A stretch of DNA of 63,635 nucleotides from an uncultured Muribaculaceae bacterium (GCA_964548815.1 CAZJSD010000001.1:1-63635); one strand, 5' to 3'; shown: positions 17,383-38,100, counted from the first letter of the stretch. Numbers and translations are program-made. The notes: generated by a model from the sequence alone, not told the origin.

Positions 17383-18006
17383 ATGGGAAGAAAAATATTT
17401 GTATCTTATAAATATTCTGATGAAGCAGTTTATGATATAGAAGGAAACTTTAATCAAACAGTTCGTGATTATGTTGATGTCATAGAAAGAAAAATAGATT
17501 TTTCGGATGACATTTATGTTGGTGAACATGATGGGGAAGATATGTCTGATTTTAAAGATCCAACAATTGAAACAAAATTAAAAAATAAAATCTTTAATAG
17601 CACTGTAACAATAGTTTTAATATCTAAAAAAATGAAAGATTTGTGGGAAGATGAAAATGACCAATGGATTCCATGGGAGATATCATATTCTTTATCTCAA
17701 TATACAAGAAATGGAAGAACCAGTTCAACAAATGCATTATTATGCGTAGTTTTACCGGATGAATTCAATTCTTATGATTACTATTATCTTGATGATAAGG
17801 ATGAAAAGTATTCATATGTTAATAGCGTTTCATTCGAAATAATAAAAGAAAATAGAAATAATTTAAAACATGGGCGATATGGAGATAACAACTATGCAGT
17901 TACTGTAAAATGGAAATATTTCATTGATAATATGGATTATTATATTAATAAAGCAGTTTCACATCAAAGTAATTATGATGATTATGAGATAAAAAGAACA
18001 GTTTAA
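17383..18006 (+). CDS. ThsB-like TIR-like (DUF1863-type) domain protein
   Basis: MGRKIFVSYKYSDE start, ...TVTIVLISKKM... strand, and WIPWEISYSL with a candidate catalytic Glu99. Layout parallels Thoeris ThsB (KRVFFSFHYQD ... WVRYEI). Confidence 0.75.
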   Translation: MGRKIFVSYKYSDEAVYDIEGNFNQTVRDYVDVIERKIDFSDDIYVGEHDGEDMSDFKDPTIETKLKNKIFNSTVTIVLISKKMKDLWEDENDQWIPWEISYSLSQYTRNGRTSSTNALLCVVLPDEFNSYDYYYLDDKDEKYSYVNSVSFEIIKENRNNLKHGRYGDNNYAVTVKWKYFIDNMDYYINKAVSHQSNYDDYEIKRTV

Positions 18007-18028
18007 AATTATAAATTGTTCTTTTTTT
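17993..18028 (+). terminator. candidate terminator after the TIR gene
   Basis: AAAGAACA / TGTTCTTT stem with a 16-nt loop and a T-run; overlaps the ORF-track start of the relaxase. Confidence 0.4.
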
Positions 18029-19924: not shown

Positions 19925-20121
19925 TGAAGAAAGAATTAAAAGTAATAGATTTTGATAAATATGAAATAAGAATAATTATTACAGCTCTTAACGATTTAAG
20001 AAACAGATTATTAAATGAAGATAAAGATACTTTTAATGTAGATGAATTATTATTAAAAGTATTGGATGCTCCAGAGAAAAAGAGATATTTTTCTAAAAGT
20101 CATTTTTTAGGTGAAAGATGA
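19924..20121 (+). CDS. small hypothetical protein (65 aa)
   Basis: Tightly coupled (TAATG) to the preceding gene and overlaps the T4CP start. Confidence 0.5.
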   Translation: MKKELKVIDFDKYEIRIIITALNDLRNRLLNEDKDTFNVDELLLKVLDAPEKKRYFSKSHFLGER

Positions 20122-21926
20122 AAAAAGAAGATATTATTTTATTTTTAATTGGTTTAATGATAATGATATGGTTAGGATTATTATTAGCGCCAGTAATTGA
20201 TAAAGGATTATTTGACATTATTGATTATATATCTAAGTTAAATAATCCTTTTAATATATCTTTTTATAGTAATTCATTTAAATCAGTTATAATTATTGTT
20301 TTAATTTATTCATTAATTATGTTTGTTTATTTTGAATCAAGAAGAAATTATAGAAAAGGAGAAGAATATGGTTCTGCAAAATGGGGAAATAAAAGGAATA
20401 TAAAAAAGGAATATACACAAGAACCAATAGAACAAAATAAGATATTAACTAAAAATGTATCTATAGGTTTAAATACAAAAAAACATAGAAGAAATCTAAA
20501 CACTATAGTAATTGGTGGATCTGGTGCAGGTAAAACAAGATTTTATGCAAAGCCTAATATAATGCAGGCAAATACATCTTTTGTAGTTTTAGATCCAAAA
20601 GGTGAAATATTAAGAGATACTGGGAACTTATTAAAAGAAAAAGGATATGAAATAAAAGTATTAGATTTAATAAATATGGAAAAAAGTCATTGTTATAATC
20701 CATTTGTTTATATTAACTCAGATAATGATATACAAAAATTAGTAACAAACATATTTAAATCAACTACACCAAAAGGGAGTGTTGCTCAAGATCCGTTTTG
20801 GGATACTATGGCGGCTGCTTTATTAAATGCTTTAATGTTTTATTTATGGTATGAGGCACCAGAAGAAGAACAAAACTTTTCTATGGTAATGGAAATGATA
20901 AGAGCTGGGGATATTAATGAAGAAGAGGATGATCATGCTACACCACTTGATTTATTATTTAATCAATTAGAGTATGAAAATCCAAATCATGTAGCACTTA
21001 AATATTATAGAAGTTATAGAAGTGGATCTGCTAAAACATTAAAATCTATATTAGTAACTTTAGTGAGTAGATTAGAAAAATTTAATTTACCAACAGTAGC
21101 ATCCCTAACACAATATGATGAAATGGACTTATCTAGTATAGGTGAAGTTAAAACAGCAATATTTGCAATTATACCTGATAATGATCCATCATTTAATTTT
21201 TTAGTAAGTATATTATATACTCAGTTATTTCAACAACTATTTTATCTTGCAGATAAAAAGTATAGAGGATCATTACCAGTTCAAGTTCATTTTTTGATGG
21301 ATGAGTTTGCCAATGTATCTCTTCCTGACGATTTTGAAAAAATATTATCAGTAATGAGATCTAGAGGTATTTTTGTTTCTATAATATTACAAAATCTAGC
21401 ACAATTAAAAGCTTTATTTGAAAAACAATGGGAATCCATTGTAGGTAATTGTGATGAATTCTTATATTTAGGTGGTATGGAGCAATCCACACATAAGTAT
21501 ATATCTGAATTTTTAGGAAAAGAAACAATAGATACTAATACATATGGATATACAAAAGGAAGAAATGGTAGTTATTCAACAAACTATCAAATAAATGGAA
21601 GAGAATTATTAACTCCAGATGAAATTAGATTATTAAATAATGACTATTCTATTTTATTTATAAGAGGTGAAAGACCTATAAAAGATAGAAAATATAATAT
21701 ACTAAAACATTCAAATGTTAAGCTATCTGTAGATGGTGGTGGAAAAGAATATGAGCATGGAAGTGTAGAGTATTCAACAGCATCTATTAATTTGGATTTT
21801 AATATTAACACTAAAGATTTAAAACTAGGTAGGGTTAATGCTAAAAATTATGTATTATTATCATCCGAAGAATTGGATGATTTTTTTAATAAAAAGAAAG
21901 AAGGTATTAAAAATGAAAAGAAATAA
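20118..21926 (+). CDS. type IV coupling protein (VirD4/TraG-like)
   Basis: Two N-terminal TM segments, Walker A IGGSGAGKTRF, Walker B-like FLMDEFAN. Confidence 0.92.
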   Translation: MKKEDIILFLIGLMIMIWLGLLLAPVIDKGLFDIIDYISKLNNPFNISFYSNSFKSVIIIVLIYSLIMFVYFESRRNYRKGEEYGSAKWGNKRNIKKEYTQEPIEQNKILTKNVSIGLNTKKHRRNLNTIVIGGSGAGKTRFYAKPNIMQANTSFVVLDPKGEILRDTGNLLKEKGYEIKVLDLINMEKSHCYNPFVYINSDNDIQKLVTNIFKSTTPKGSVAQDPFWDTMAAALLNALMFYLWYEAPEEEQNFSMVMEMIRAGDINEEEDDHATPLDLLFNQLEYENPNHVALKYYRSYRSGSAKTLKSILVTLVSRLEKFNLPTVASLTQYDEMDLSSIGEVKTAIFAIIPDNDPSFNFLVSILYTQLFQQLFYLADKKYRGSLPVQVHFLMDEFANVSLPDDFEKILSVMRSRGIFVSIILQNLAQLKALFEKQWESIVGNCDEFLYLGGMEQSTHKYISEFLGKETIDTNTYGYTKGRNGSYSTNYQINGRELLTPDEIRLLNNDYSILFIRGERPIKDRKYNILKHSNVKLSVDGGGKEYEHGSVEYSTASINLDFNINTKDLKLGRVNAKNYVLLSSEELDDFFNKKKEGIKNEKK

Positions 21927-23960: not shown

Positions 23961-24290
23961 ATGGAAGTAAAAATAAATAAAGAAATAAGAAACTATACAG
24001 AAGATATTTTTTTTGGATTGTCATTTAGACAATTCTTTTTTTCTGTTTTATCTTGCATAGTTGCAATAGCTATATATTTTGCATTTAAATCTATAGTAGG
24101 AAAAGAAGTAACATCCTGGTTATGTATGATTTGTGCTTTCCCTTTTATTATGTTAGGCTTTTTTAAATATAATGGTTTACCTACAGAAAGAATAATTAAA
24201 TTTATAATAAAGAATCATGTATTAACACCAAAAAAATTATTATTTAAACCAGTAAATTTTTATAAATTATTAATTGGAGGTATAAAATGA
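23961..24290 (+). CDS. PrgI/VirB3-like small membrane protein
   Basis: 109 aa with two TM segments, immediately upstream of and overlapping VirB4. Confidence 0.65.
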   Translation: MEVKINKEIRNYTEDIFFGLSFRQFFFSVLSCIVAIAIYFAFKSIVGKEVTSWLCMICAFPFIMLGFFKYNGLPTERIIKFIIKNHVLTPKKLLFKPVNFYKLLIGGIK

Positions 24291-26620
24291 AAACTATAAA
24301 GAAATTATTTAAACAAAATAAGGATCAGTTAAGAGTTCCTAAAAGTGTTCAATCAGTAATACCAATTGATACAATATATGATAATGGTATTTTTAAAGTA
24401 TCAAAGAATATGTATTCTGTTTGTTTTAGATTTACAGATATTAATTATGCAGTAGCGTCTAAAAGTGATAAAGAAACTATGTTTTTAAAATATAGTGAAT
24501 TATTAAATTCATTTGATGCGGATGCCACTACCAAAATAACAATATTAAATAGAAAAATAAATTATAATGATTTTGAAAAAAATATAATGATTAAAAATAA
24601 TAAAGATAAATTAGATAAATTTAGAAAAGAATATAATGATATGTTAAAACAAAAAATAGTGGATTCAAATTCAATAATTCAAGAAAAATATTTAACTGTT
24701 TCTGTTAATAAAAAGAGTTTAGAAGAAGCAAAAAATTATTTTTCAAGAATTAGTGGTGACCTAAAAAATTATTTTAATGATTTAGGTTCAAAGTGTTATC
24801 AATTATCTACTATAGATAGACTAAGATTACTTTATGATTTCTATAGAGAAGGAGAAGAAAATTCATTTTGTTTTGATATTCAAGATGACATGAAAAAAGG
24901 ACATTCTTTTAAAGATTATATATGCCCAGATACTTTTTCTTTTCATAGTGATTATTTTGAAATGGGTAATAAGTATGGAAGATCTTTCTTTTTAAAATAT
25001 TATGCTAATTATATTAGGGATGACATGGTTTCTGAGTTAACAGCTATAGAAAGGAATATGGTTTTTAGTATTGATGTTATACCAGTTCCTATGGATGAAG
25101 CAATTAGAGAAGTTGATAATATTAAACTAGGAGTTGAAACTAATATTGCTAATTGGCAAAGAAGACAAAATAATAATAACAATTTTAGTGCAGTTATTCC
25201 TTATAATATGGAGCAACAAAGAATAGAATCTAAAGATGTGTTAGATGATTTAACTACAAGAGATCAAAGGATGTTCTTGTGTACTATTACAATGACATTT
25301 ACAGCAAATTCAAAAGAAGAATTAAATAATATAACTGATAGTTTATTATCAACTGCAAGAAAACATCTATGTCAACTTGGGATTTTAAAATTCCAACAAA
25401 TTGATGGATTAAACACTTCACTTCCTATTGGAGTAAGACAAATTGATACATTAAGAACTTTAATAACTGAAAGTTTAGCTGTTTTTATGCCGTTTAGAGT
25501 TCAAGAAATTAATCACACAAATGGAATATATTATGGAGAAAATGTGATAAGTAAAAATATGATTATAGCAGATAGAAAACAATTATTAAATGGAAATTCA
25601 TTTATATTGGGAGTCTCAGGTTCTGGTAAATCATTCGCTGCTAAAAACGAAATAGTTAACTTAATGTTAAATGATCCAAATTCTGATATTTTGGTAATTG
25701 ATCCAGAAAGAGAGTATGGAGAACTTATAAAATCGTTGTATGGAGAAGTAATACATATTTCAGCAACGAGTAGTAATCATATAAATGCTCTTGATTTAAA
25801 TAGTGAATATGGTGATGGTGCAAATCCAGTAACTTTAAAATCAGAATTCTTATTATCACTATGTGAACAGTTAATAGGTAATAAAAACTTGGGCCCGAAA
25901 GAAAAATCTATTATAGATAGATGTACTGCAAAAGTTTATAGAATTTATCAACAAGGGAATTATCAAGGTGTTCCACCAACACTTCAAGATTTTAGAGAAG
26001 AGTTATTAAAACAAGAAGAACAAGAAGCAAAGGATATAGCTTTATCATTAGAATTATATATAAATGGTTCTTTAAATACATTTGCTAATAATACTAATGT
26101 TGATACAAATAATAGGTTAATTTGCTACGACATCTTAGATTTAGGTAAGGAATTAAAGAAAGTAGGAATGCTAGTAATTTTAGATAATATTTTAAATAGA
26201 ATTACTTTAAATAGAAAAAAAGGTAAAAATACATATATATTTATTGATGAAATATATTTATTGTTTCAGGAAGAATATACCTCTAATTTCTTATTTACTT
26301 TGTGGAAAAGAGTGAGAAAGTATGGAGCGTATGCTACAGGAATTACTCAAAATGTAGATGATCTTTTGCAATCACATACAGCACGAACAATGCTTGCTAA
26401 TTCTGAGTTTATTATGATGCTTAATCAAGCTGCGACTGATAGACAAGAATTAGCAAAACTACTAAATATTTCATCTCAACAAATGTCATACATTACTAAT
26501 GCAGATGCAGGATCTGGATTAATTAAAGTAGGTAGTTTTATTATTCCGTTTAAAAATGAATTTCCAATTAATACACAACTTTACAAATTAATGACAACAA
26601 AACCTAGTGAAAAAAAATAG
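24287..26620 (+). CDS. VirB4-like conjugal transfer ATPase
   Basis: Walker A LGVSGSGKSF, Walker B IFIDEIYLLF; 777 aa. Confidence 0.92.
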   Translation: MKTIKKLFKQNKDQLRVPKSVQSVIPIDTIYDNGIFKVSKNMYSVCFRFTDINYAVASKSDKETMFLKYSELLNSFDADATTKITILNRKINYNDFEKNIMIKNNKDKLDKFRKEYNDMLKQKIVDSNSIIQEKYLTVSVNKKSLEEAKNYFSRISGDLKNYFNDLGSKCYQLSTIDRLRLLYDFYREGEENSFCFDIQDDMKKGHSFKDYICPDTFSFHSDYFEMGNKYGRSFFLKYYANYIRDDMVSELTAIERNMVFSIDVIPVPMDEAIREVDNIKLGVETNIANWQRRQNNNNNFSAVIPYNMEQQRIESKDVLDDLTTRDQRMFLCTITMTFTANSKEELNNITDSLLSTARKHLCQLGILKFQQIDGLNTSLPIGVRQIDTLRTLITESLAVFMPFRVQEINHTNGIYYGENVISKNMIIADRKQLLNGNSFILGVSGSGKSFAAKNEIVNLMLNDPNSDILVIDPEREYGELIKSLYGEVIHISATSSNHINALDLNSEYGDGANPVTLKSEFLLSLCEQLIGNKNLGPKEKSIIDRCTAKVYRIYQQGNYQGVPPTLQDFREELLKQEEQEAKDIALSLELYINGSLNTFANNTNVDTNNRLICYDILDLGKELKKVGMLVILDNILNRITLNRKKGKNTYIFIDEIYLLFQEEYTSNFLFTLWKRVRKYGAYATGITQNVDDLLQSHTARTMLANSEFIMMLNQAATDRQELAKLLNISSQQMSYITNADAGSGLIKVGSFIIPFKNEFPINTQLYKLMTTKPSEKK

Positions 26621-26663: not shown

Positions 26664-28082
26664 TTGATAATAAGAGAAAAGAATAAAATAATTAAGACAT
26701 TAGATAAAAATAAAGAATTATATAATAGTACTAAACATAATTATGAAGAATTAAATAAAAATGAAGATAGTGCTACTATGTATGCTCAAAACAATATGAA
26801 AAATGGAGTTATTAAATCTATAAAATTATTAAAAAATGAAAGCGATAAATTTATAAAAAAAGTAAATAATAAAATAACAAAAAAAACAGTAAAAGTAGCA
26901 AAGAAAAATGTTTCTAAGGCTGCAAAGCAAACAAAAATGAATGTAGAAAGAGCAAGACAATTGGCTATAAAAACTACTAGAGTTACAATTAAAATAAGTA
27001 AAATAATAGGAAAAGCAATAATTTCATTAATAAAAGAAGTTGTTGCTTTTTTTAAATCAATTGTTGGGTTGATTATGTCACTAAGTACTATTGCGATAAT
27101 AATTATTATTGTTATTTGTGTTATAGCTTTATTATGCCTAACCGTATATGGTATTTTTCTTTCAAATGAGAAAACTAGTGTTAATGATATTAAGATGTCA
27201 GATGTAATATCCGAATGTAACATTGAATTAGCACAAAAAATAGAAGATATAAAAAGTAAAAATAATTATGAAGAAATTATTATTAATTCAAATAGAGCAA
27301 ATTGGAATGATATTTTATTAATATATACTGTAAAAATATCTAATGGCTTAAATCAAAGTGAAATAATGACTATAGATGAAGATAAAAAAAATACTTTGAA
27401 AAAGATATTTTGGGATATGAATATAATTACATCAGAAGTAAAAACAGCATTAATAGATGAAGATATGACTGATAAAAAAGGAATTCCTAAAAAGATTCAA
27501 AAAAGAGTTTTATATATTAATATTAAAGGTAAAAGTATCGATGAAATGAAACAATTATATAATTTCAATTTTTCACAAATAAATCAATTAGAAGAACTAA
27601 ATCAGGGAAAATATAGTTTACTATGGAATAGTGCAATTTATGGTGGTGAAAAAGGAAATTCTGATGTGGTTTCAATTGCTTTGAAAGAAGTAGGTAATGT
27701 TGGTGGAGAACCATACTGGAGATGGTATGGATTTGATGAAAGAGTAGAATGGTGTGCTTGTTTTGTTTCTTGGGTAGCTAATCAAGCAGGATATATAGAA
27801 AAAAATATAATACCAAAATTTGCTGGTTGTGAAACAGGAGTAAATTGGTTCAAAGCAATGAATGAGTGGAGAGAACCAGGATATGTACCGAAACCTGGTG
27901 ATATTATATTTTTCGATTGGGAAGTAGATGGGTCAGTTAGCCATGTTGGAATAGTTGAAAAAGTAGAAAATGATACTATTTATACTATAGAAGGTAATTC
28001 AATTAATGACGATTGTCAAAAAAGGTTATATTCAATTAATAATAAATTTATTTATGGATTTGGTGTACCAGATTATAGATGA
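26664..28082 (+). CDS. membrane-anchored CHAP-domain peptidoglycan hydrolase (VirB1 analogue)
   Basis: TTG start with GAAGGTGA RBS; internal TM segment; C-terminal CHAP motifs WCACFVSW (Cys) and SHVGIVE (His). Confidence 0.85.
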   Translation: MIIREKNKIIKTLDKNKELYNSTKHNYEELNKNEDSATMYAQNNMKNGVIKSIKLLKNESDKFIKKVNNKITKKTVKVAKKNVSKAAKQTKMNVERARQLAIKTTRVTIKISKIIGKAIISLIKEVVAFFKSIVGLIMSLSTIAIIIIIVICVIALLCLTVYGIFLSNEKTSVNDIKMSDVISECNIELAQKIEDIKSKNNYEEIIINSNRANWNDILLIYTVKISNGLNQSEIMTIDEDKKNTLKKIFWDMNIITSEVKTALIDEDMTDKKGIPKKIQKRVLYINIKGKSIDEMKQLYNFNFSQINQLEELNQGKYSLLWNSAIYGGEKGNSDVVSIALKEVGNVGGEPYWRWYGFDERVEWCACFVSWVANQAGYIEKNIIPKFAGCETGVNWFKAMNEWREPGYVPKPGDIIFFDWEVDGSVSHVGIVEKVENDTIYTIEGNSINDDCQKRLYSINNKFIYGFGVPDYR

Positions 28083-28106
28083 TTAAATATTTTAAAAATG
28101 TAAATC

Positions 28107-28167
28107 TGCATTTAAAATGCAAAAATGCAACAAAAATATTGACTTTTTTTAAATGTTATAATATTAT
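28107..28167 (+). promoter_or_regulatory. palindromic operator plus promoter of the LysR gene
   Basis: TGCATTT-A-AAATGCA palindrome (28107-28121), then AAAATGCAACAAAAAT, then TTGACT (28139-28144), 17 nt, TATTAT (28162-28167). Confidence 0.45.
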
Positions 28168-28195
28168 ATGTATCAACAAAAAAGGGGAGATTTTT

Positions 28196-29056
28196 ATGTT
28201 AAAAACTCAATCAATGAATTTAGATTATATTAGAACTTTTGTAGTTGTAGGACAATCTAAAGATTATAGAGATGCAGCAAATAAATTAAATATTGATCAT
28301 ACTAACGTTTCTAGACATATTAAAGCACTAGAAGAAATAATGGAAACTAAGCTTGTTAGTAGATCTTCAAATAAAACAATTGAGTTAACAAAAGAAGGTA
28401 AAAAACTATTTGATGGATATGAAAAAGCATATAATATATTAATGTTTACTGAAAAGAGTTTGAGACAAAATAGATCATTAGATAGTGGAAAAATATCTAT
28501 AGGTGTTTCTAGTGATATAGACGTTGATTTATTAAATAATAATGTTAGAAAGTTTAAAGAATTATATCCTTCTGTTGTACTAAAAATTGTTACTTTTGAT
28601 ACAAAAGAATTATTTGAAAGACTTGAAAAGTATTATATTGATTTTGTTATAGATGAAACTTATTCTAAAATAAAAAAAGATAATGATATAAAGTCTAAAA
28701 TAATTTCAAATGAAAAATATTGTATAGCATATAATATTGATAAAAAGATATCTAAGATAAAAGATTTAAATAATTTACCATTAATAGTTCCAGTAAGTTC
28801 AAAACAAGATCGAGTAAAATTTGAAGAATATTTACAAAAAAACAAAATTACAAAAAACATTTCTTTAGAGGTAGATAATTATGATTCTGCAAGAGATTAT
28901 GCTGTTTCAGGACTAGGTTATGCATTACTTCCAAAGAGAATTGTTGATAAAACAAATTTAAAATATTTTGATATTGATTTAGATAAAGAAATATCTATTT
29001 CTTATGTTAATGGTAATTTATCACCATCTAGCAAAGAATTTTTGAAACTTTATTAG
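28196..29056 (+). CDS. LysR-family transcriptional regulator
   Basis: wHTH LDYIRTFVVVGQSKDYRDAANKLNIDHTNVSRHIKALEE. ATG at 28196 with GGGGAGA RBS; the ORF-track start at 28079 runs through the promoter. Confidence 0.9.
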   Translation: MLKTQSMNLDYIRTFVVVGQSKDYRDAANKLNIDHTNVSRHIKALEEIMETKLVSRSSNKTIELTKEGKKLFDGYEKAYNILMFTEKSLRQNRSLDSGKISIGVSSDIDVDLLNNNVRKFKELYPSVVLKIVTFDTKELFERLEKYYIDFVIDETYSKIKKDNDIKSKIISNEKYCIAYNIDKKISKIKDLNNLPLIVPVSSKQDRVKFEEYLQKNKITKNISLEVDNYDSARDYAVSGLGYALLPKRIVDKTNLKYFDIDLDKEISISYVNGNLSPSSKEFLKLY

Positions 29057-29058
29057 AA

Positions 29059-29102
29059 AACTATAACAACAAATAATTAAGTTTGTTGTTATAGTTTTTT
29101 TA
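29059..29102 (+). terminator. strong rho-independent terminator between lysR and the radical-SAM gene
   Basis: 15-bp perfect stem AACTATAACAACAAA / TTTGTTGTTATAGTT followed by T6. Confidence 0.85.
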
Positions 29103-29173
29103 TTAAAATAATAAAATGTAGTTTTTTGTATCACTTTTCTATGTTATTATTTTGGGATGATGAGGTGAGAAGT

Positions 29174-30301
29174 ATGGCAATAATAGAGATGCATTCTAGT
29201 TGGTTAGCAATTAATTCGGTTCTAGGTTGTCCAAATGGATGTAAATACTGTTTATTGCAAGCAACTGGCAATAATAATGCAAAACCAAAAGAATTAGCTA
29301 CACCTCATGATTCAATAAATGCATTATTAAGTTATAAATACTACGACAAAAGTATTCCAGTTTGTTTATTACCTAATACAGATGTATTTGTTACAAAATC
29401 AAATATCAACTATTTATTGAATCTGTTAGATGAGATTGAAACTAGAAATATAAAAAATGATTTAATAATAATTACAAAGTGTGAAATCCCCGACTTAATA
29501 ATTAGTAAAGTTCTAGAATTAAAAACTAAAGGACATAATGTTATTTTTTATATTAGTTATTCCGGTTTACCAAAAGAAATAGAACCAAATATTTCAAAAA
29601 ATATTTTAATTAACAATTTTAGAAAACTAAAACAAAACAATATTGACGTTATCCATTATTATAGACCATTTTTACCTCAAAACTCATCTAAAAAAGAAAT
29701 AGAGAGTGTAATAGATGAGATAAATAAATATACTGATATCTCAGTTATTACAGGATTCGCTTTGATTCAAAATTTTATTGATAAAATTGATTTTTGGCCA
29801 GATATTATTAATAATAAAGAAAAATGTCTTAAAGCTAATTGTGTGTGGCCAAGAACAGCTTGGGAGTTCTTTAATAAAGATTATAAGAAAAGACAATATG
29901 TTTTTCAAACAAATACATGTGGTTTATATAGCAAATTAAAAAGACCATCACATTATTATGGATCTTATGAATGTTTAAATTATAATCATTGTAGTAAAGA
30001 ACAAAAATATAGATGTAAAAAAAGACATGAGATGATAGATAAAATTACACAAGAATTAAATTGTTATAAATTATTAAAAAAATTAGGTTATGATATAAGT
30101 AATATTGATTTAAAATATGATATGTATAATAGTATCGTTTTACAAAATATAGATTTGAAAATAAGTGATTTATCATATTTATCGTATATGCTAGAAACTA
30201 AAGTATATATTAAAAATAATAATATATTAGAAGATACATATAATTCAACATTAAATGGAGCTAAACCATTAGTTTTGGAAACAGGAGCTAAAAATGAATG
30301 A
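29174..30301 (+). CDS. radical SAM enzyme (COG1533/SPL-like N-terminal motif), function unknown
   Basis: CX3CX2C in ...VLGCPNGCKYCLLQ...; GAGGTGA RBS before MAIIEM; a second Cys-rich patch near the C-terminus. Confidence 0.8.
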   Translation: MAIIEMHSSWLAINSVLGCPNGCKYCLLQATGNNNAKPKELATPHDSINALLSYKYYDKSIPVCLLPNTDVFVTKSNINYLLNLLDEIETRNIKNDLIIITKCEIPDLIISKVLELKTKGHNVIFYISYSGLPKEIEPNISKNILINNFRKLKQNNIDVIHYYRPFLPQNSSKKEIESVIDEINKYTDISVITGFALIQNFIDKIDFWPDIINNKEKCLKANCVWPRTAWEFFNKDYKKRQYVFQTNTCGLYSKLKRPSHYYGSYECLNYNHCSKEQKYRCKKRHEMIDKITQELNCYKLLKKLGYDISNIDLKYDMYNSIVLQNIDLKISDLSYLSYMLETKVYIKNNNILEDTYNSTLNGAKPLVLETGAKNE

Positions 30302-31796
30302 AATAATAAAATTTTTGGATATTCACTATGAGTCTGCTTTAAAATTAGTAAGTGATTTTGATATAACAAAAAATAAAGAATGGAATTCTCAAATTTATTT
30401 AAATGAATTATATGTTCAGTTAGGACACGTCTATAATGTTTTATATTCAAATGATAATGTTAATGAATTAAAAAGAAATATAAATAATCTTGGGGATGAA
30501 TTATCTGATGTATTACTTCAATTAATAAATTTAGCTTATACTTTAAAAATAAATATGTATGAAATAAATAATATAGACTCATTTCAATATGATGATATTA
30601 ATGGTTTTCCTATTCTTTTAGGCCAATTAACAGAAGTAATTATGGAAATGAATGATTGCAGATTTAAAAAAAATAGATTTGGATTTAATACAAGTTTTGA
30701 TTTCATCAAAGATAGATTGTTTAAACTGTTTATGCTTACTTATAATATAGCAAAAAAATATAATCTTGATATGATAAAAGAGTTTAAAGATATGCTAGAT
30801 GATGCTAATGGTTTTTTAGATAGGTTTGAGAATAAAACAGATAATAAAAAAGAATATTTAGATATATATGATAAAAACGAAAATCTAATTGGATACTCTG
30901 ATAAAGAAATAGTCCATAAAAATGGATATTGGCACAAAGTTTTTGGATGTTTAATCTTTAACAGTAAAAGAGATGTAGTATTCTTACAGTTAAAAAATCC
31001 ATATTATAATAAAGTTAATAAAAAACCTTTATATGAAATTACAGTAGGTGGGCACTTAATTTCTGGAGAATCTGTAAGTGATGGTATAAGGGAAATAAAA
31101 GAAGAAACAGGTCTTAGTATAAAATTTAAAGATCTTGTTTTCTTTGAAAAAAGAAATATTTCAAAGAAAGTTAATAATAATTATATTATAAAAGAATTCC
31201 AATATTTTTATGGATTAAATAAAAATATTAAAGTTTCAGAATTAACTACTTACGATAATGAAGAAATTATTTCGTTTGCTGAAGTAAATATTCAAGATTT
31301 AAAAGATTTAATAAATGATAACAAAAACTCAATAAAAGGAATAAATAATTATTTAGAAAAAGTGCTAATAACTAAATCTGATTTAGATACAGCATTTATA
31401 GAAAATGGTTTATATTTATCTTTGTTAAATAATATTAATAATAAAAAGAAAAATAAAGAAATAAATAATAGAATAAAAAAACTATATAAAAAAGATAAAA
31501 ATAATAAAAAAAGTAATGACTATTACTATGATAATGGAATAGTAATAAATCATAAAGATTATTCAAAAGGAGATTTGAAGTATTCAGTAATAATACTAAA
31601 AACAGATGTTGATAAAAATGAATATTTAGTTTATTTATTATTAATATATAAAAATAAATCTATATCACATTTGTTAGAAAGAAAGTTTTTATCCAAAAGA
31701 GGAATATATAAATATTTTAATGAATTATCAAATTATATTGATATCAATAACAATTTAGATATTATAAATAAATGTATTGAAAAAAGAAATACATAA
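30294..31796 (+). CDS. MazG-like / Nudix hydrolase fusion protein with unknown C-terminal domain
   Basis: MazG-type helix LGDELSDVLLQLINLAY (around 30489-30540). Nudix box GGHLISGESVSDGIREIKEETGL (around 31047-31115). The ATG overlaps the radical-SAM stop (ATGAATGA). Confidence 0.8.
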   Translation: MNEIIKFLDIHYESALKLVSDFDITKNKEWNSQIYLNELYVQLGHVYNVLYSNDNVNELKRNINNLGDELSDVLLQLINLAYTLKINMYEINNIDSFQYDDINGFPILLGQLTEVIMEMNDCRFKKNRFGFNTSFDFIKDRLFKLFMLTYNIAKKYNLDMIKEFKDMLDDANGFLDRFENKTDNKKEYLDIYDKNENLIGYSDKEIVHKNGYWHKVFGCLIFNSKRDVVFLQLKNPYYNKVNKKPLYEITVGGHLISGESVSDGIREIKEETGLSIKFKDLVFFEKRNISKKVNNNYIIKEFQYFYGLNKNIKVSELTTYDNEEIISFAEVNIQDLKDLINDNKNSIKGINNYLEKVLITKSDLDTAFIENGLYLSLLNNINNKKKNKEINNRIKKLYKKDKNNKKSNDYYYDNGIVINHKDYSKGDLKYSVIILKTDVDKNEYLVYLLLIYKNKSISHLLERKFLSKRGIYKYFNELSNYIDINNNLDIINKCIEKRNT

Positions 31797-31865
31797 AAAA
31801 TACATAAAAAGTACTATTATTTTGACTATTGAATTGAAATAAAATTAGAGTTATTATGTTATTAG

Positions 31866-31901
31866 TAAGAACTTTTAGCTATTAAAGGTTCTTATTTTTT
31901 T
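31866..31901 (+). terminator. rho-independent terminator of the radical-SAM operon
   Basis: TAAGAAC / GTTCTTA stem followed by T7. Confidence 0.7.
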
Positions 31902-31974
31902 ACTATGTAAAGTGCAAAAACGCAACAAAGATTGTAAAAATGCTTGACTTTTTCTAAAAATATGTTAGTATAAG
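31902..31974 (+). promoter_or_regulatory. operator-like TGCAAAAA element plus promoter of the regulator gene at 32094
   Basis: AAGTGCAAAAACGCAACAAAGAT closely matches 28118-28137, followed by TTGACT (31944-31949) and GTATAAG about 18 nt downstream. Confidence 0.4.
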
Positions 31975-32093: not shown

Positions 32094-32564
32094 ATGAAAG
32101 CATTGATTTCTAAAAAATATTTAAATTATTTTGATATGAGGTTGTTAACCAAAGAAGTTCATGATTTGTTTGATGAGTATAATTTTATTAATGAGTTACT
32201 AAATAATAATATGATAGAGAAAAATCAAAGCCCAATACACCTAACAATAAGTTCGACATCAAATAGTAGTTCAGAATTAAACAAACTTCTTAAAATCGAA
32301 AAATATGAAAAATATATTAAATATTTTGAAAGTAATCTTAATTATTTAAAATCTAATATGACTGATGATGAATTACTTATTTATAAGTATTGTATAGAAG
32401 AAAGAGAAATAGATAGAATTGTTAGTGATAGAATATGTAAATCAGGAAAAACATATTACAAGATAAAGAAAAGTTGTTATGCAAAAATTGCTATGAAATT
32501 TAATCTTGCTACTATTACTAGCAATGAATCTTTTAGAAAAAGTTTAAAAATAAAAGAAGCATAA
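32094..32564 (+). CDS. ArpU/RinA-like or sigma-region-4-like transcription regulator
   Basis: GGGGGGA RBS; C-terminal ...DDELLIYKYCIEEREIDRIVSDRICKSGKTYYKIKKSCYAKIAMKFNL has the layout of phage late-gene activators. Assignment is tentative. Confidence 0.55.
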   Translation: MKALISKKYLNYFDMRLLTKEVHDLFDEYNFINELLNNNMIEKNQSPIHLTISSTSNSSSELNKLLKIEKYEKYIKYFESNLNYLKSNMTDDELLIYKYCIEEREIDRIVSDRICKSGKTYYKIKKSCYAKIAMKFNLATITSNESFRKSLKIKEA

Positions 32565-32634: not shown

Positions 32635-32680
32635 AAAAACAAAATATTATGAACTTGTTAAATTGAAAGGAGAGATATTT

Positions 32681-33784
32681 ATGAATTTAACAGAACAAAC
32701 AGTTACTGGAAATTCTAGTGTAACTGTAAATGATTCATTAAATGCAGCATTACTTGAAATTCATATGAAACCAAGTACAAATGATGCAAATTATCCAGAT
32801 GATCAAGAAATATATATTTATGTGGATAAGAATCCAAGTTCTAATCCATCAAATGAGAGAAAACAATATGTTTTTGATGGAAGATTATTTGGATTAACAG
32901 GTGGACAAGATGAACTTGTTCAAGAACTTAAAATTGTTAACAATGAACCAGTTTTAAGTTGTTACGTTATAAGAAGAGTAGGAATAGATCAAACTCTTAT
33001 AAATCCGCACTATTTATTAAATGATCCAATAATAGAAGCAAGGGATAGTGTAGATATAACATTATTTGAGGGAACAAACTATATTTATTCAAATTATCCA
33101 GACGCAGAGTTTACTATTATTTATCCAAAAGCTACTGCATCTAATAAGTATTATGTAAGTGCATTAAATTATGCAAGACATAAAGAAAATGCATCAGATG
33201 AATTTTCACTTGATGATATATACTTTAAAGATGCATTTACAAAAACAGGAAATGAACTTAATGAAGAAATAGATAATCTTAACGTAAAATGTATTACTTC
33301 TAAGAATAATAATTTTAGTTTAGATTCACAAGGTAATTTAATTGTTAATAGCATAACAACAAATTCTACTAACGGATTATTAGATCTTGTATATCCAGTT
33401 GGAAGTATATATATGTCAGTTAATTCAACAAGTCCAGCCACATTATTCGGTGGAAGTTGGGAACAAATAAAAGATAAATTCTTATTATCAAGCGGAGATA
33501 CATATACAAATGGAGATACTGGAGGAGAAGCTACTCACTTACTAACTGCCGCAGAAAGTGGAATGCCTAATCATTATCATAATTATGGATATACTGATGC
33601 ATCTGCTTGTAGACCAACATACACTGCTGATAGTAACTGGATGACAATTCTAAATCACGTTGGAAATAATGGGCAAGGTTATGGTTCAGTAAGAACACAA
33701 AACTCTGGAGCAAAAAATGCAACAAGTGCTCATAATAATATGCCACCATATTTAGTTGTAAATGTTTGGAAAAGAGTATTGTAA
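32681..33784 (+). CDS. phage tail-fibre / receptor-binding-like protein 1 (tail-collar-type C-terminus)
   Basis: AAAGGAGAG RBS; C-terminal ...VYPVGSIYMSVNSTSPATLFGGSWEQI...GGEATHLLTAAESGMPNHYH...AHNNMPPYLVVNVWKR pattern of Firmicute phage fibre tips. Confidence 0.72.
   Translation: MNLTEQTVTGNSSVTVNDSLNAALLEIHMKPSTNDANYPDDQEIYIYVDKNPSSNPSNERKQYVFDGRLFGLTGGQDELVQELKIVNNEPVLSCYVIRRVGIDQTLINPHYLLNDPIIEARDSVDITLFEGTNYIYSNYPDAEFTIIYPKATASNKYYVSALNYARHKENASDEFSLDDIYFKDAFTKTGNELNEEIDNLNVKCITSKNNNFSLDSQGNLIVNSITTNSTNGLLDLVYPVGSIYMSVNSTSPATLFGGSWEQIKDKFLLSSGDTYTNGDTGGEATHLLTAAESGMPNHYHNYGYTDASACRPTYTADSNWMTILNHVGNNGQGYGSVRTQNSGAKNATSAHNNMPPYLVVNVWKRVL
33197..33469 (+). repeat. conserved cassette shared by the two fibre-like genes (copy 1)
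   Basis: About 270 nt nearly identical to 34276-34545 (I counted about 14 mismatches plus one 3-nt indel); the flanks are strongly diverged. Confidence 0.9.
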
Positions 33785-33798
33785 AGAGGAGATTGAAT

Positions 33799-34815
33799 AT
33801 GAACAGCCAAGTATATAGTTTTAGAGATGATGATACAGTACTTGATTCATTAAATGGAGCATTATTTTCAATTGAAATTGTACCTGATGAGACTGTTGTT
33901 GCTCCACAAGATAATCAATTGATAATATATGTTGAAGATTTTCCACAAGGTAATAATTATAATAGAAAAACATATATTTATGATTTACAAACTCAGTTAG
34001 CATGTAATGATAATTATGATAATTATTTTACACAGGAAATAGTAATTGAAAATAATAAACCAATTGTTAAAACAAGATTATATTATAACACTTTGAATGA
34101 TAGTGGATATTACGAATTAGATCCACAAGAAATCATATTGTTTGAAGGATATAATAGAATTTATACTAATTATCAAAATGTAGATATTACTATTAATTAT
34201 TTAAAAGATAATTTTACTAATAGATATTATTCAAGTAATGCATTGTTTAATAGTCATTTAGAAAACTCATCAAGTGATTTCTCATTGGATGATATATATT
34301 TTAAAGATGCATTTACAAAAACTGGAAATGAACTTAATGAAGAAATAGATAATCTTAATGTAAAATGTATTACTTCTAAGAATAATAATTTTAGTTTAGA
34401 CTCACAAGGTAATTTAATTGTTAATAGTATAACAACAAATTCTACTAATGAATTATTAGATCTCGTATATCCAGTTGGAAGTATATATATGACAGTTAAT
34501 TCAACAAGCCCAGCTACATTATTTGGTGGGAATTGGGAACAAATAGAAAGTGACGCTTATTTAAAAATAGTAAATACTAATGCTGGAAATTTAGGTGGAA
34601 CTTCATCAAATCACAAAATTCCTTTGTCTAGTATCCCATCACATAATCATTATATATCTAGTATGAGAAACTGTGGAGTATCACAAGGAGGTTTTTATGG
34701 AGTAGCATGTAATAATTCAGCAGGAGCAATTGGTATGACAACTGATAATAGAGGTGGTAGTGAAGCATATTATCCATATTATTTTGGTGTATATGTATGG
34801 AAAAGAATATCTTAA
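33799..34815 (+). CDS. phage tail-fibre / receptor-binding-like protein 2 (paralogue with a different tip)
   Basis: AAAGAGGAG RBS. Same central cassette as the first gene. Tip ...GGTSSNHKIPLSSIPSHNHY...YYPYYFGVYVWKR. Confidence 0.72.
   Translation: MNSQVYSFRDDDTVLDSLNGALFSIEIVPDETVVAPQDNQLIIYVEDFPQGNNYNRKTYIYDLQTQLACNDNYDNYFTQEIVIENNKPIVKTRLYYNTLNDSGYYELDPQEIILFEGYNRIYTNYQNVDITINYLKDNFTNRYYSSNALFNSHLENSSSDFSLDDIYFKDAFTKTGNELNEEIDNLNVKCITSKNNNFSLDSQGNLIVNSITTNSTNELLDLVYPVGSIYMTVNSTSPATLFGGNWEQIESDAYLKIVNTNAGNLGGTSSNHKIPLSSIPSHNHYISSMRNCGVSQGGFYGVACNNSAGAIGMTTDNRGGSEAYYPYYFGVYVWKRIS
34276..34545 (+). repeat. conserved cassette shared by the two fibre-like genes (copy 2)
   Basis: See 33197-33469. 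Confidence 0.9.
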
Positions 34816-34831
34816 AATAATGGTGATAAGT

Positions 34832-35161
34832 ATGCTAAATTTTGAATGTTATAATAATTCTGTTCTAGAATTAAATATTTTAAAAAAAAGACTTGATATT
34901 ATAAAAAAAGCAAAAGAAAACCTGTTAAATGAAGAAAAAAATATAAAAGAAACTATCAATTTATACGTAAATAAAACAAATTCTATTAAGAAAAATCTTT
35001 CAGAATTAAAAGGAATTGAATATGAATTATATTCGGAAATTGTTATTAATGGGTTAAATGTATCAAAAGCAGTAGAAAAAGTTGCAGAAAAAAATGAAAA
35101 GGATGTTTCAACTATATGGAAAAACTATTATCCAAAAATTAAAACATTTATAGAAATATAA
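34832..35161 (+). CDS. small coiled-coil protein with HTH-like C-terminus (109 aa)
   Basis: GGTGA RBS; ...LKGIEYELYSEIVINGLNVSKAVEKVAEKNEKDVSTIWKNYYPKIK resembles small phage HTH/sigma-r4-like proteins. The ORF-track start at 34754 overlaps the previous gene. Confidence 0.5.
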   Translation: MLNFECYNNSVLELNILKKRLDIIKKAKENLLNEEKNIKETINLYVNKTNSIKKNLSELKGIEYELYSEIVINGLNVSKAVEKVAEKNEKDVSTIWKNYYPKIKTFIEI

Positions 35162-35184
35162 AATAAAAGAAAAGGAGGAATAAA

Positions 35185-38100
35185 ATGAAAAAAATAGAGA
35201 TACTTGATAAAAGAAAAAAAAGAGAAAAACATTACTTACAAGAAGATGGAACCTTTATAGCTGAATTATATGATGATGATGTTCATTTTTTTAATAACGA
35301 AAAATATGAAGAAATAGATAATACATTAGAATTAAAAAATGATTATTATACAAATAAAGCCAACGATTTTAAAGTATATTTTTCAAATAAGCGTGATTCA
35401 GAAATTATGAAATTAGAACAAAATGGAAATTATATAATTACTAGTTTAAAAAATTATAAAGACTATAGTATCGAAAAGAAAAAAAATACATCTATACTAT
35501 ACGATAATATTAAATATGTCGAAGTTCTTAAGAATATAGATATATCCTATGATATTACACCATCAAAGGTAAAAGAAAATATAATTATTAAAAATACTGA
35601 TGCAGATATAGATAATCTCATTTTTGAAATAAAAACGGATTTAGATTTAGAATTAAATGATAATGAAATTGTAGCAAAAAAGAATAATCAAAAATTATTT
35701 TCTATTGAAAATCCATATATGATAGATGCGACAGGAGATATATGTAAAAACGTTCATTATTCATTAGCAAAAAAAGATTCTTTTTATGAATTAAATCTTA
35801 GTGTAGATTATGCATGGATTAATAAATCAAAATTCCCTATAATAATTGATCCAACGATATCGCAATATTCTAATGAAAATAGTGTAATAGATACATATAT
35901 TTATGAGGGGGATACTGGAATAACAAAAAGTAATTTAGAATATTTTAAGGTAGGTGTAGAAAGAAATAATAATGTTGATATTAAAAACAGGGCATTATTA
36001 TGGTTTCAGTTACCAGAATTAGGGACAGGAAGTCAAGTTATTTCAGCTAATTTATTATTACGTGGTTATCCAGATACACCAAATAACTATAATTATACAT
36101 ATTTAGATATTCATAAAGTTAATCAAGAATGGATGAACACCGAACCAAATTGGGTCAATATGAACGATAAATATGATTCGAGAGTTGAAGGAAATATGGA
36201 GGCTAGAAGAACATATTTTATTACAGATAATACAATTAGTTATTGTATGTGTGCAGGAGATATAACATCATTAGTACAAAAATGGTATACAAATGAACCA
36301 AATTATGGAATTTTAATAAAGTCTAGTAATGAAGTATATAATTCATCATTACTACCTCAATTTTTTTCTAAAGAAAACAATGTCAATGGAGGTTCTCCAA
36401 AACCATTATTATTAATAACTTATAGAATTTTAAATGGTATAGAAGAATATATGGGTTTAGAGTCTCATGAAATATCAATAGGGAAGATATATCACAATCT
36501 TTTTAATGGAAATCTTATTTCTTTATTTGAAATAGGAAAGACATCTAATATTCATCTAAATCTTGTTTATAATACAAATGATGTAGTTTTAAATAAGAAT
36601 ATAGGATATGGATTAGGTTTTAGGCTTAATTTTAGTCAAACCATTGAAGAAGAATATGTAGATAATACAAAGTATTTAAAGTATATTAATGATACAGGTG
36701 CAGTTCATTACTTTTTAAATAAGAAAAATAAGATAGTTAATAACAACATAGTAGAAGAAAACTACGTTAATAAATATTGTGATGAAGATGGACTAAATTT
36801 GACAATAACTGACTTTGATACATATTATATATTAACTGATAATAATGGTGTTGAAAATAGATTTGATATTATTAATAATATAGGTTACTTGACTCAAATA
36901 AAAAATAAAGCATCTGATGTAATAAATATTTCTTATGACAACAACAATAGAATAATTAGTATTATTGATTCTAACAATGAGCAAATGAGTATATCCTATA
37001 ATAATAATATTATAAGTATAACATCACCTACAATTATTTATAGTTTAACATATAATAATGATTTTAATTTAACAAAGATTAATGTTTTAAATAAGGAAAT
37101 AAATATTTTGAATACAAATAACTTAATTACAGAGATAACAGATGTTAATAATAAAAAAATATGTTATGAGTATTATAATAAGAATCCATATCGTATAAAA
37201 AAAATTAGTCAATATGGCAATAATAATGATTTGGGTAGGTATTATTTATCTAATTACAACCATTTTTCTACTACATTAACGGATTTTAAAGGAAGAAAAA
37301 AGAATATTCTATTTAATTCTCAAGGAAATCCAATTTCTGTTACTGGGTTAGATGAAAATATAGATTTAAAAACTGGATATGGCAGTAAATTTGATTTTAA
37401 AGATTCTGATATTACGTTAAATAATTTTACTAATAAGAATCTAAGTTCATACACACCAATAAAATATGTAAAAAATTTATTAACTAATTCAAGTTTTGAA
37501 CAAAACAATATTATTTTTTTGAATGAAAATGTTTCTTGTTCAATTAGTGATGATTTTGCAAATAGTGGTTTTACAAGTTTAAAGTGTGAATCAACAGATA
37601 CCGATTCTTTTATATATCTTATAAAAGAATTGCCAGTTAATAAGAATTACACTTTTAGTGGTTATTTTAAACCAATAAATGAAAGCGTCACTATGAGTAT
37701 ATATTCCACTGATGAAAATGATAATTTTATATTAAATGAAGAAGTGATTATTCCTACTTCTGATGATTTTGAAAGATATGATGTTTCTACATTTCTTTCT
37801 TCAGATTCAACTGGAAAAATAAAAATTATAATAAGTATATCTGATTCAGAAATATGTTATATAGATAATATTCAGTTAGAAGAAGGAATGGTTGCTAATG
37901 AATATAATTTTATAGATAATTCTGATTTTTCGGATGGATTAGATTCTTCATGGCAAGTTACAAGTTCAAACTATCCTCCAAATAATATTGTAAGTATTGC
38001 AAGTATAACGCCGAATCAAAATGCTTTAAAAGTTAAAATGTATTCTTCTAATACAACTGAAATATCAAAAACATTTGAAATAAGTGGAAAACAAGGAGAT

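Follow-up and report, generated by a model that had tools for sequence, protein, structure and literature searches.

A mobile-element-borne module of radical-SAM, MazG-like and Nudix parts predicted to act on a nucleotide-linked substrate

Introduction

Radical S-adenosylmethionine (rSAM) enzymes that work on nucleotides have repeatedly given new chemistry and useful molecules, as with viperin (ddhCTP), OxsB (oxetanocin), PolH/NikJ, MoaA and QueE. In oxetanocin-A biosynthesis, encoded on the Bacillus megaterium plasmid pOXT1, the cobalamin-dependent enzyme OxsB carries out the radical step on a nucleotide and OxsA, an HD-domain phosphohydrolase, sets the phosphorylation state. MazG and MutT-type Nudix enzymes are classical house-cleaning families, and Nudix and MazG-type enzymes are also able to cleave nucleotide messengers. 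Here we describe a locus on an integrative and conjugative element (ICE) in a 63,635-nucleotide stretch of DNA from an uncultured Muribaculaceae bacterium (GCA_964548815.1 CAZJSD010000001.1:1-63635; the whole stretch is called the window below), in which a LysR-type regulator precedes an rSAM enzyme and a 500-aa protein composed of a MazG-like domain, a Nudix domain and a C-terminal domain.

The closest described systems each resemble the locus in part. With OxsB/OxsA it shares the form of a minimal mobile-element-borne pair of an rSAM enzyme and a nucleotide phosphohydrolase, but the rSAM enzyme of the window lacks a B12 domain and has a four-cysteine C-terminal site, the hydrolases are MazG-like and Nudix, and no homology was detected. 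Viperin and the prokaryotic viperins (pVips) are likewise rSAM enzymes, act on a pyrimidine nucleoside triphosphate (NTP) and often occur with nucleotide kinases and in conflict contexts; their defining reaction takes CTP, UTP or GTP to the 3'-deoxy-3',4'-didehydro-NTP. By contrast, the window enzyme has another C-terminal architecture and obligate pyrophosphatase partners that would hydrolyse an NTP product. The octosyl acid route to polyoxin and nikkomycin combines a MurA-like enolpyruvyl transferase (NikO/PolA), an rSAM enzyme on a UMP derivative (PolH/NikJ) and a phosphatase (PolJ); PolH acts on 3'-enolpyruvyl-UMP made by the MurA-like enzyme (PMC5365060). Streptomyces homologues of the window rSAM enzyme lie directly after a MurA-like gene, but the clade of the window enzyme has no such gene, and the CX3CX2C motif of PolH is at residues 225-232 compared with 19-26 in the window enzyme, a different architecture, with homology seen at superfamily level only. 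Spore photoproduct lyase (SPL, COG1533), which repairs the thymine dimer photoproduct (5-thyminyl-5,6-dihydrothymine) in DNA, is also a small rSAM enzyme with an N-terminal GCxxxCxYC-type motif, but the window enzyme has no profile or fold match to a solved SPL and its partners are nucleotide enzymes.

Of the two hydrolase-type domains, the MazG-like one has in common with MazG, YpjD and DCTPP1, by profile, a helical hairpin with ExxD (E69, D72). It differs in being a two-unit domain of ~180 aa with Q42xGH45 for EExxE and its own conserved E/R/K set, and in being always tied to the rSAM family of the window. The best structural matches of the Nudix domain are of the type 1 isopentenyl diphosphate (IPP) isomerase (IDI) type, including E. 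coli YfcD, with which it shares an N-terminal beta-hairpin and the GGH/His positions, but it keeps a full hydrolase box, REIKEETG. By analogy, the locus appears to work like the known rSAM-plus-phosphohydrolase nucleotide pathways while belonging to none of them.

Results

The locus consists of three co-directional open reading frames (ORFs) in a window of ~25% G+C, where nearly every gene is on the + strand. The LysR gene has its own promoter and terminator and is followed by a two-gene operon, in which the gene for the rSAM enzyme (375 aa; 29174..30301, +; assigned from its motif, fold model and homologue alignment) overlaps by 8 nt, at 30294-30301 (ATGAATGA), the start of the ORF for the 500-aa protein (30294-31796, +). 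Our preferred, though tentative, reading is that the locus represents, in fused form and on an ICE, a three-part module that is widespread and self-contained and would act on a nucleotide-linked molecule, with a pyrimidine (d)NTP or a nucleoside diphosphate derivative (NDP-X) as its most likely substrate. That the substrate is nucleotide-linked, taken by itself, is probable. An earlier reading made by a model from the DNA alone (the sequence-only reading) had likewise proposed a nucleotide-centred pathway from the motifs, and this now has further backing in co-occurrence, gene fusions and neighbours concerned with nucleotides and NDP-sugars. The features on which it was built, namely the LysR gene, a terminator with a 15-bp core, the GCPNGCKYC motif and the stop/start overlap, were all found again by ORF reading and RNA folding.

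Conservation of the set carries most of the argument. A scan of one genome per GTDB species gave 80 rSAM loci, which were annotated with our own hidden Markov models. The MazG-like domain is present in 70 of these and is accompanied by a Nudix domain within 5 kb in 63, while contig ends cut 11 of the 17 exceptions lacking the full set. The hosts comprise gut Bacilli, 'Tenericutes' and Erysipelotrichaceae, Clostridia, Streptomyces and Kitasatospora, as well as Ensifer, Micavibrio and other Alphaproteobacteria, Saccharibacteria, Gracilibacteria and Shapirobacteria. All three parts (rSAM, MazG-like and Nudix) are found together in Bacilli, Clostridia, Alphaproteobacteria and lineages of the candidate phyla radiation (CPR). 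The co-occurrence count proposed as a check on the sequence-only reading thus came out in its favour, and the pairing of the rSAM and MazG-like parts is not chance. The parts are arranged as three genes or as fusions in several orders: MazG~rSAM (P0204-P0210, L055-L066), rSAM~MazG (Saccharibacteria L086-L089, L048, P0213, P0237 and others), MazG~Nudix, MazG~Nudix~C-terminal domain (the ICE clade), GT2~MazG (L069/L070) and NTP_transferase~rSAM (P0229, P0242). Junctions between separate genes are mostly -4 to +2 nt. Together, the co-occurrence, the fusions in varied orders and the tight junctions are strong evidence that the three parts work together. Six further ICE-type loci have the order LysR, rSAM, MazG~Nudix~C-terminal domain and ArpU-like gene followed by conjugation genes, and metagenomes hold many relatives of both proteins, often on shared contigs. 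Megablast of the locus DNA gave no match in the plasmid and phage collections.

The rSAM enzyme carries the CX3CX2C motif as GCPNGCKYC at residues 18-26 (29225-29251, +), with C19, C23 and C26, and has four C-terminal cysteines (C249, C267, C273 and C281; 29918-30016, +) with the spacing Cx17Cx5Cx7C, which include a CPxxQRxxC motif. All of these cysteines are invariant in 31 diverse homologues, as are T69, N95, T101-K102, S130, E137 and H161/R164/P165 of an HY[WFY]RP motif, so the second Cys-rich patch noted in the sequence-only reading is a conserved feature and a candidate auxiliary Fe-S site. Placement in the radical SAM superfamily follows from the CX3CX2C motif and a match of the fold model to rSAM cores (Foldseek probability 1.0); the Pfam PF04055 score is below threshold (15.2 bits, cut-off 29.5), and most of the listed homologues have a precomputed PF04055 match. 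The enzyme would accordingly be expected to cleave SAM reductively to a 5'-deoxyadenosyl radical. A profile search of 1.84 billion cluster representatives gave a family of at least 511 representatives at E<=1e-3. The AlphaFold2 model has a pTM of 0.81, with low confidence in the cluster-binding N-terminus, and in Foldseek it retrieved generic rSAM cores only, with PFL-activating enzyme first (E=1e-4), then NifB, SkfB, EpeE and anSME, and TM<=0.38 throughout. There was no specific match in NCBIfam, PADLOC or PDB sequence searches, and no specific homologue among PDB chains with either the single sequence or the family profile; the sole significant PDB sequence match, a designed TIM barrel, reflects composition and repeats.

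Three named identities were tried for this enzyme, and none gained support. SPL was rejected, being absent from the PDB chains (profile, E<=10) and from the Foldseek top 50, and the specific kinship with SPL/COG1533 suggested by the sequence-only reading is thus unsupported. Its suggestion of viperin fared no better, with no PADLOC match and Foldseek values (E=0.028-0.035, TM 0.29-0.37) that do not improve on those of other rSAM cores. A SPASM/twitch maturase of ribosomally synthesized and post-translationally modified peptides (RiPPs) was also rejected: Pfam gave no SPASM domain at E<=0.1 and there was no precursor peptide among the called neighbours, a survey in which ORFs of <60 aa were not called and a very short precursor would be missed. 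As an account of the locus, DNA repair by an SPL/COG1533-type lyase, or RiPP maturation by an enzyme with an auxiliary cluster, is scarcely credible. It could draw on the name 'DNA repair photolyase' (COG1533-style) that JGI gives to two homologues, the sole pointer toward SPL, on the N-terminal GCxxxCxYC context, which we take to recall SPL, and on a C-terminal Cys cluster reminiscent of SPASM or twitch domains. Besides the failed SPL and SPASM matches, it has against it that no conserved small peptide gene occurs in the recurrent neighbour clusters (ORFs >=60 aa), which consist of enzymes and regulators, and that the conserved partners are nucleotide enzymes, not DNA-repair genes.

The 500-aa protein begins with the MazG-like all-alpha NTP-pyrophosphohydrolase-type domain (aa 1-180; 30294..30833, +), defined by a family profile and consisting of two helical hairpin units. 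It is assigned to the MazG-type fold by profile homology to MazG, YpjD and DCTPP1 together with an all-helical AlphaFold2 model of aa 1-180: the family profile reaches 5ie9 (1.8e-6) and B. subtilis YpjD (2gta, 5.9e-6) in the PDB and, more weakly, DCTPP1 and 2q73 (2.5e-4), while the Pfam MazG match of the protein itself is below the cut-off (E=0.084; 13.6 bits versus 22). Across 73 distinct sequences the conserved positions are E38, Q42, H45, R61, D68, E69, D72, E114, E118, R123, K126, R128, E163 and D170. The MazG helix pair of the sequence-only reading is thus upheld as a fold, with ExxD retained in 72 of the 73 sequences, but it departs from the canonical form in its first metal motif. It is followed by the Nudix hydrolase domain of the IDI/YfcD-like subgroup (aa ~186-360; 30849..31373, +), which scores 30.1 bits with PF00293 (cut-off 21.1) and is modelled with a pLDDT of 89; its Foldseek matches are IPP isomerase (2i6k, 7e-8) and E. 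coli YfcD (2fkb, 2e-7). The Nudix box lies at 31050-31115 (+) and reads G253x5E259x6R266E267xxE270E271xG273. Described earlier as complete, it is indeed intact, and the form GGHx3GEx6-7RExxEExG is kept in 54 distinct sequences from several phyla; the window version, GGHx3GEx6REIKEETG, has a spacer of 6 residues, not 7, one short as in most members. Type 1 IPP isomerase was rejected as an identity (NF002995, 21.9 bits versus 127; TIGR02150, 16.1 versus 105.8), with the hydrolase box intact, unlike that of IDI; the position that we take to hold the catalytic Cys of IDI reads Gly (VGGH) here.

After a Lys-rich helix linker, the protein ends in a beta+alpha domain (aa ~405-500; 31506..31796 including the stop codon, +), modelled with a pLDDT of 80-93. 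As the sequence-only reading had it, this Lys-rich C-terminal part has no family match in Pfam. The domain is restricted to the ICE-type clade, where in one case it forms an ORF of its own (L049) and in another it is joined to MazG without Nudix (MazG~C-terminal domain, L037). In Foldseek searches of PDB and BFVD with the 500-aa model, Nudix matches prevailed and gave no fold assignment for the MazG-like or C-terminal domain; PADLOC had no match to the protein.

Because the two hydrolase families are house-cleaning enzymes in their classical role, sanitation or repair of the nucleotide pool has to be considered, with MazG and Nudix cleaning and the rSAM enzyme repairing or degrading a damaged or non-canonical nucleotide anaerobically under LysR stress control. 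It would suit the chromosomal versions placed between a thioredoxin-like gene and sufCDSU, and a module common in strict anaerobes and in reduced-genome, nucleotide-salvaging organisms. We regard it as very improbable: the Nudix domain is of the IDI/YfcD-like and not the MutT subgroup, no precedent for rSAM nucleotide repair was found, and the SUF adjacency is confined to one lineage.

Neighbouring genes differ by rSAM clade, the clades being taken from a neighbour-joining ordering of the rSAM domains. The clade of the window is LysR-linked and contains unfused chromosomal versions together with fused ICE versions that have the ArpU-like gene; its loci hold no other conserved pathway gene, which suggests that the module is self-sufficient and can work alone. 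The chromosomal LysR-linked triads sit between a membrane thioredoxin-like gene and sufC-sufD-sufS-sufU (L038 5898-13515; also L041-L044, L046 and L075). In its sister clade (33-37% identity) MazG~rSAM goes with a glucose-1-P cytidylyltransferase-like gene (287.5 bits versus a cut-off of 300.25), a small generic Nudix gene, an HprK-like P-loop protein and GT2 genes and, in places, genes for a UDP-GlcNAc 2-epimerase, a polysaccharide pyruvyl transferase and an ABC-2 transporter. Close to the alphaproteobacterial and CPR versions is a thymidylate-kinase-like gene or NDK, and one Clostridia locus (L052) has an NT5C-like nucleotidase with an S_4TM effector gene upstream. On Streptomyces plasmids, full-length rSAM homologues (30-34% identity) come after a class II aldolase and a MurA-like enolpyruvyl transferase and precede an RNase_T-type exonuclease, an AAA_28 kinase-like protein and an aldo/keto reductase. 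The theme that these superfamily neighbours appear to have in common, judging from their predicted families, is nucleotides and nucleotide-sugars, mostly through pyrimidine-linked enzymes.

The sister clade brings in tailoring of an NDP-sugar for a surface glycan. The rSAM enzyme would then work on the hexose of a CDP- or UDP-sugar, with Nudix and MazG trimming or policing its nucleotide handle, and glycosyltransferases would take up the product to decorate the cell surface, possibly altering phage or conjugation receptors. The gene set of that clade, with its cytidylyltransferase-like, GT2, HprK-like kinase, epimerase, pyruvyl transferase and ABC-2 transporter genes, speaks for this, and so do the NTP_transferase~rSAM and GT2~MazG fusions. 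We nevertheless think it unlikely, given that the clade of the window, whether on ICEs or next to SUF genes, has no nucleotidyltransferase, glycosyltransferase or flippase nearby and that CPR and Micavibrio versions accompany nucleotide kinases instead.

Several plasmid and chromosomal arrangements were recorded beside these. The order aldolase, MurA-like, rSAM on linear plasmids of Streptomyces and Kitasatospora (L093 4685-10623, L094 4670-8167, L090 5759-9095) recalls the NikO/PolH logic of high-carbon nucleoside antibiotics, and in L093 the rSAM gene is followed by an HTH gene, the exonuclease, an AAA ATPase and the aldo/keto reductase. A plasmid cassette of rSAM, RNase_T 3'-5' exonuclease, AAA_28 kinase-like protein and aldo/keto reductase or HD protein recurs in L097 (5838-11057) and L098 (1516-14965); in S. 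alboflavus, with a more distant homologue, the cassette is preceded by ThyA-like and tandem-NDK genes. Upstream of the MazG~rSAM operon of L008 (593-5001) are a NadR-like HTH_3 + AAA_28 + CYTH protein, a LysR, a methyltransferase-like protein and a CyaB-type CYTH protein, with a RelA/SpoT gene ~7 kb downstream of the operon. In one ICE (L001 6812-8712) a diversity-generating retroelement (bAvd and reverse transcriptase) lies directly upstream of LysR-rSAM-MazG/Nudix, with a tyrosine integrase further upstream.

Clear conflict contexts occur only among more distant rSAM relatives, the closest clade being ICE-borne or SUF-adjacent and the sister clade in glycan-type loci. A more distant homologue on plasmid pB of Sinorhizobium chiapasense lies amid Shedu, ABC-3C, HEPN/Toprim, PIN/XRE and QueC-like genes. 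The most distant relatives are large single proteins (P0275, P0277, P0282, P0292, P0300, P0328 and P0343; locus L095) in which a swappable N-terminus (TIR, DUF4062, nucleoside deoxyribosyltransferase-like, TCAD9/kinase, metallophosphatase or transmembrane) is followed by DUF5919, then rSAM and sometimes a C-terminal HD domain, and P0282 adjoins TIR-WD40 and Ras-like GTPase genes. Such proteins have the look of a conflict system that has yet to be described, and PADLOC matches only their N-terminal TIR or DUF4062 parts; a homologue search with a TIR-rSAM relative was swamped by TIR matches and left one usable context.

Immunity of the viperin kind would have the rSAM enzyme turn an NTP into a chain terminator directed at the polymerases of phages or rival elements, while the hydrolases shield the host or adjust the pool. 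In favour of this, the ICE carries the operon as cargo next to genes for a TIR protein and an RHS toxin, and distant relatives either have a TIR, DUF4062, Nuc_deoxyrib_tr or HD domain fused to them or stand beside TIR-WD40/GTPase genes. A 3'-5' exonuclease and a kinase-like ATPase accompany the Sinorhizobium homologue, whose surroundings include Shedu, ABC-3C, HEPN/Toprim and PIN genes, and L052 has its S_4TM effector gene upstream. Even so, we hold this to be distinctly unlikely. Neither protein has a PADLOC match and there is no specific similarity to viperin; a triphosphate product would be hydrolysed by the pyrophosphatases for NTP and NDP-X whose translation is coupled to that of the enzyme; and LysR-type control and SUF-adjacent chromosomal versions are atypical for defence genes. 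Moreover, tblastn found no homologue in 50,697 phage records, which leaves no sign of an arms-race partner. The defence logic of the sequence-only reading, whether viperin-like or by nucleotide depletion, is accordingly treated here as a hypothesis.

Control signals frame the operon on both sides. The LysR gene (28196..29056, +) encodes 286 aa from its likely start; the longest ORF begins at 28079, overlapping the stop of the preceding CHAP gene, but we place the start at the ATG at 28196 because homologues begin there and a GGGGAG ribosome-binding site precedes it. An N-terminal HTH_1 (E=6e-13, 48.9 bits) and a LysR substrate-binding domain (E=1e-19, 70.9 bits), both above the Pfam cut-off, identify it as a LysR-type regulator; NCBIfam gave no equivalog-level match. 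It shares 51% identity with the LysR that other ICEs have in this place, and LysR adjoins rSAM in 34 of the 80 species-representative loci (cluster 1, LysR, counts 43 among all loci analysed). A sigma-70-like promoter for this gene, TTGACT-17-TATTAT (28139..28167, +), is a consensus match only, with 10 of 12 positions agreeing. Four nucleotides upstream of its -35 box lies a 17-nt motif (TGCAAAAATGCAACAAA, 28118..28134, +), of which a second copy (TGCAAAAACGCAACAAA, 31913..31929, +) is found 14 nt upstream of the -35 box of the next, ArpU-like gene. The exact motif (TGCAAAAAYGCAACAAA) has only these two copies in the window, each just upstream of a TTGACT -35 box and with offsets that differ by 10 nt. 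It also occurs in L016 and L031, and a related sequence (TGCAAAAATGCA) precedes both the LysR and the rSAM gene in L002. The motif may be a shared operator bracketing the enzyme operon. An intrinsic terminator hairpin followed by a U-tract lies between the LysR and enzyme genes (29055..29101, +; -21.3 kcal/mol, z=-8.8; 20 pairs counting the A/U extension, core 15 bp) and has an equivalent in L002, and a second terminator with a U-tract closes the operon (31864..31901, +; -12.4 kcal/mol, z=-4.4). Rfam searches gave no riboswitch or other known RNA in the operon region and no riboswitch in eight related loci.

This layout bears on a possible role in anti-defence or establishment: inside the recipient, the hydrolases would break down nucleotide immune signals or messengers derived from NAD, and the rSAM enzyme would serve as an accessory. 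Such messengers are within the reach of Nudix and MazG-type enzymes, and in other ICEs the operon is at the edge of the conjugation module, near ssb. However, the same triad is found on chromosomes in many settings that are not mobile, a promoter gated by LysR and set behind a terminator is unlike a design for early expression on entry, and the rSAM enzyme is left without a role, which makes this highly improbable.

The ICE itself, also recognised in the sequence-only reading, is evident from a single block holding a relaxase (18016-19335), a coupling protein (T4CP, 20118-21926), a VirB4-like ATPase (24287-26620), a CHAP hydrolase (26664-28082) and a serine recombinase (44937-46502). A ThsB-type TIR-like protein (17383-18006) is encoded directly upstream of the relaxase, and the genes before the operon run from a SpaA/thioester adhesin through the TIR-like protein, relaxase, DUF3801, T4CP, a pilin-like protein and the VirB4-like ATPase to the CHAP hydrolase. 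The downstream neighbour conserved in the ICE family, an ArpU-like regulator (32094..32564, +; TIGR01637 phage_arpU, E=3e-5, below cut-off), has 43% identity with its positional counterpart in L002 and adjoins the operon in 32 loci; it is counted here as a neighbour of the operon and not among the pathway genes. Beyond it, 32663-43282 is a phage-late-like or toxin block with two paralogous Gp10_C tail-fibre-like genes that have a near-identical internal segment in common, a 2060-aa RHS/YD-repeat protein with a small downstream ORF, a holin and a GH25-LysM lysin. A sigma-70 region-4 protein, the serine recombinase and then PcrA follow, PcrA looking chromosomal.

Discussion

We propose that the rSAM enzyme would use a 5'-deoxyadenosyl radical to modify a nucleotide-linked molecule in its sugar part. 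The MazG-like domain would convert a triphosphate form to monophosphate and pyrophosphate, and the Nudix domain would cleave an NDP-X or diphosphate form, so that substrate and product would be held at a defined non-triphosphate level, much as the phosphohydrolase OxsA does with OxsB. PolA/PolH/PolJ, HisE-type hydrolysis of a modified NTP and the dCTPase-to-dNMP-modification logic of phages offer further analogies. A small molecule sensed by LysR would turn the operon on. On the ICE, the product might, speculatively, be a signal or a bioactive analogue of a nucleotide or nucleoside and aid the element or its host in conflicts, an attractive role given the other cargo of the element and the conflict-type relatives in the superfamily. 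A bolder version, which we consider doubtful, is that the triad represents a hitherto unrecognised, viperin-independent route to a modified pyrimidine nucleotide or nucleoside, serving as a small-molecule weapon or immune effector on ICEs and plasmids, and that the wider superfamily, with its TIR-, DUF4062-, HD- and exonuclease-linked forms, is a new class of nucleotide-based conflict enzymes.

Several points weigh against our preferred reading of a self-contained nucleotide module. The assignment of the substrate class depends on guilt by association, and the rSAM enzyme is without a specific sequence or structure neighbour of known function (best Foldseek E=1e-4 and TM<=0.38, with a low-confidence N-terminus). 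In the MazG-like domain the first metal motif, EExxE, is replaced by Q42xGH45; the conserved acidic residues E38, E114, E118, E163 and D170 could compensate, but with the canonical motif absent the domain could be a binding module and not a hydrolase. The ICE-type operon has no kinase, exporter or immunity gene of the sort that a producer of a nucleoside analogue might need, and the GT2, cytidylyltransferase and epimerase context of the sister clade would be better suited to tailoring of glycan precursors. A chain-terminator NTP of the viperin type as end product is argued against, given that two coupled pyrophosphatases would destroy the triphosphate.

The rSAM family and its conserved partner set are new to the resources searched: Pfam, NCBIfam, PDB, PADLOC and the full-text literature yielded no family model, solved structure, defence model or paper, and memberships in SPL, viperin, IDI and SPASM-maturase families all failed. 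The sequence-only reading had likewise not recognised the gene combination as a described system. Of the outcomes that it had named as counting against it, none appeared: the rSAM enzyme falls in no characterised housekeeping family, the pairing with the MazG-like and Nudix parts is conserved elsewhere and the Nudix and MazG motifs are themselves conserved. The locus is best seen as a well-defined lead for enzyme discovery with a plausible link to biological conflict, and not as an established defence system.

The family ranges from human-gut Bacilli to CPR bacteria and rhizobia, and its function is directly testable in vitro, given that the conserved partners narrow the search for substrates to nucleotides and nucleotide-sugars. 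If the product is a glycan precursor, the module would add a new radical step to NDP-sugar tailoring; if it is a nucleotide analogue, it would provide a new antiviral or antibacterial chemotype and a new cargo function for gut ICEs.

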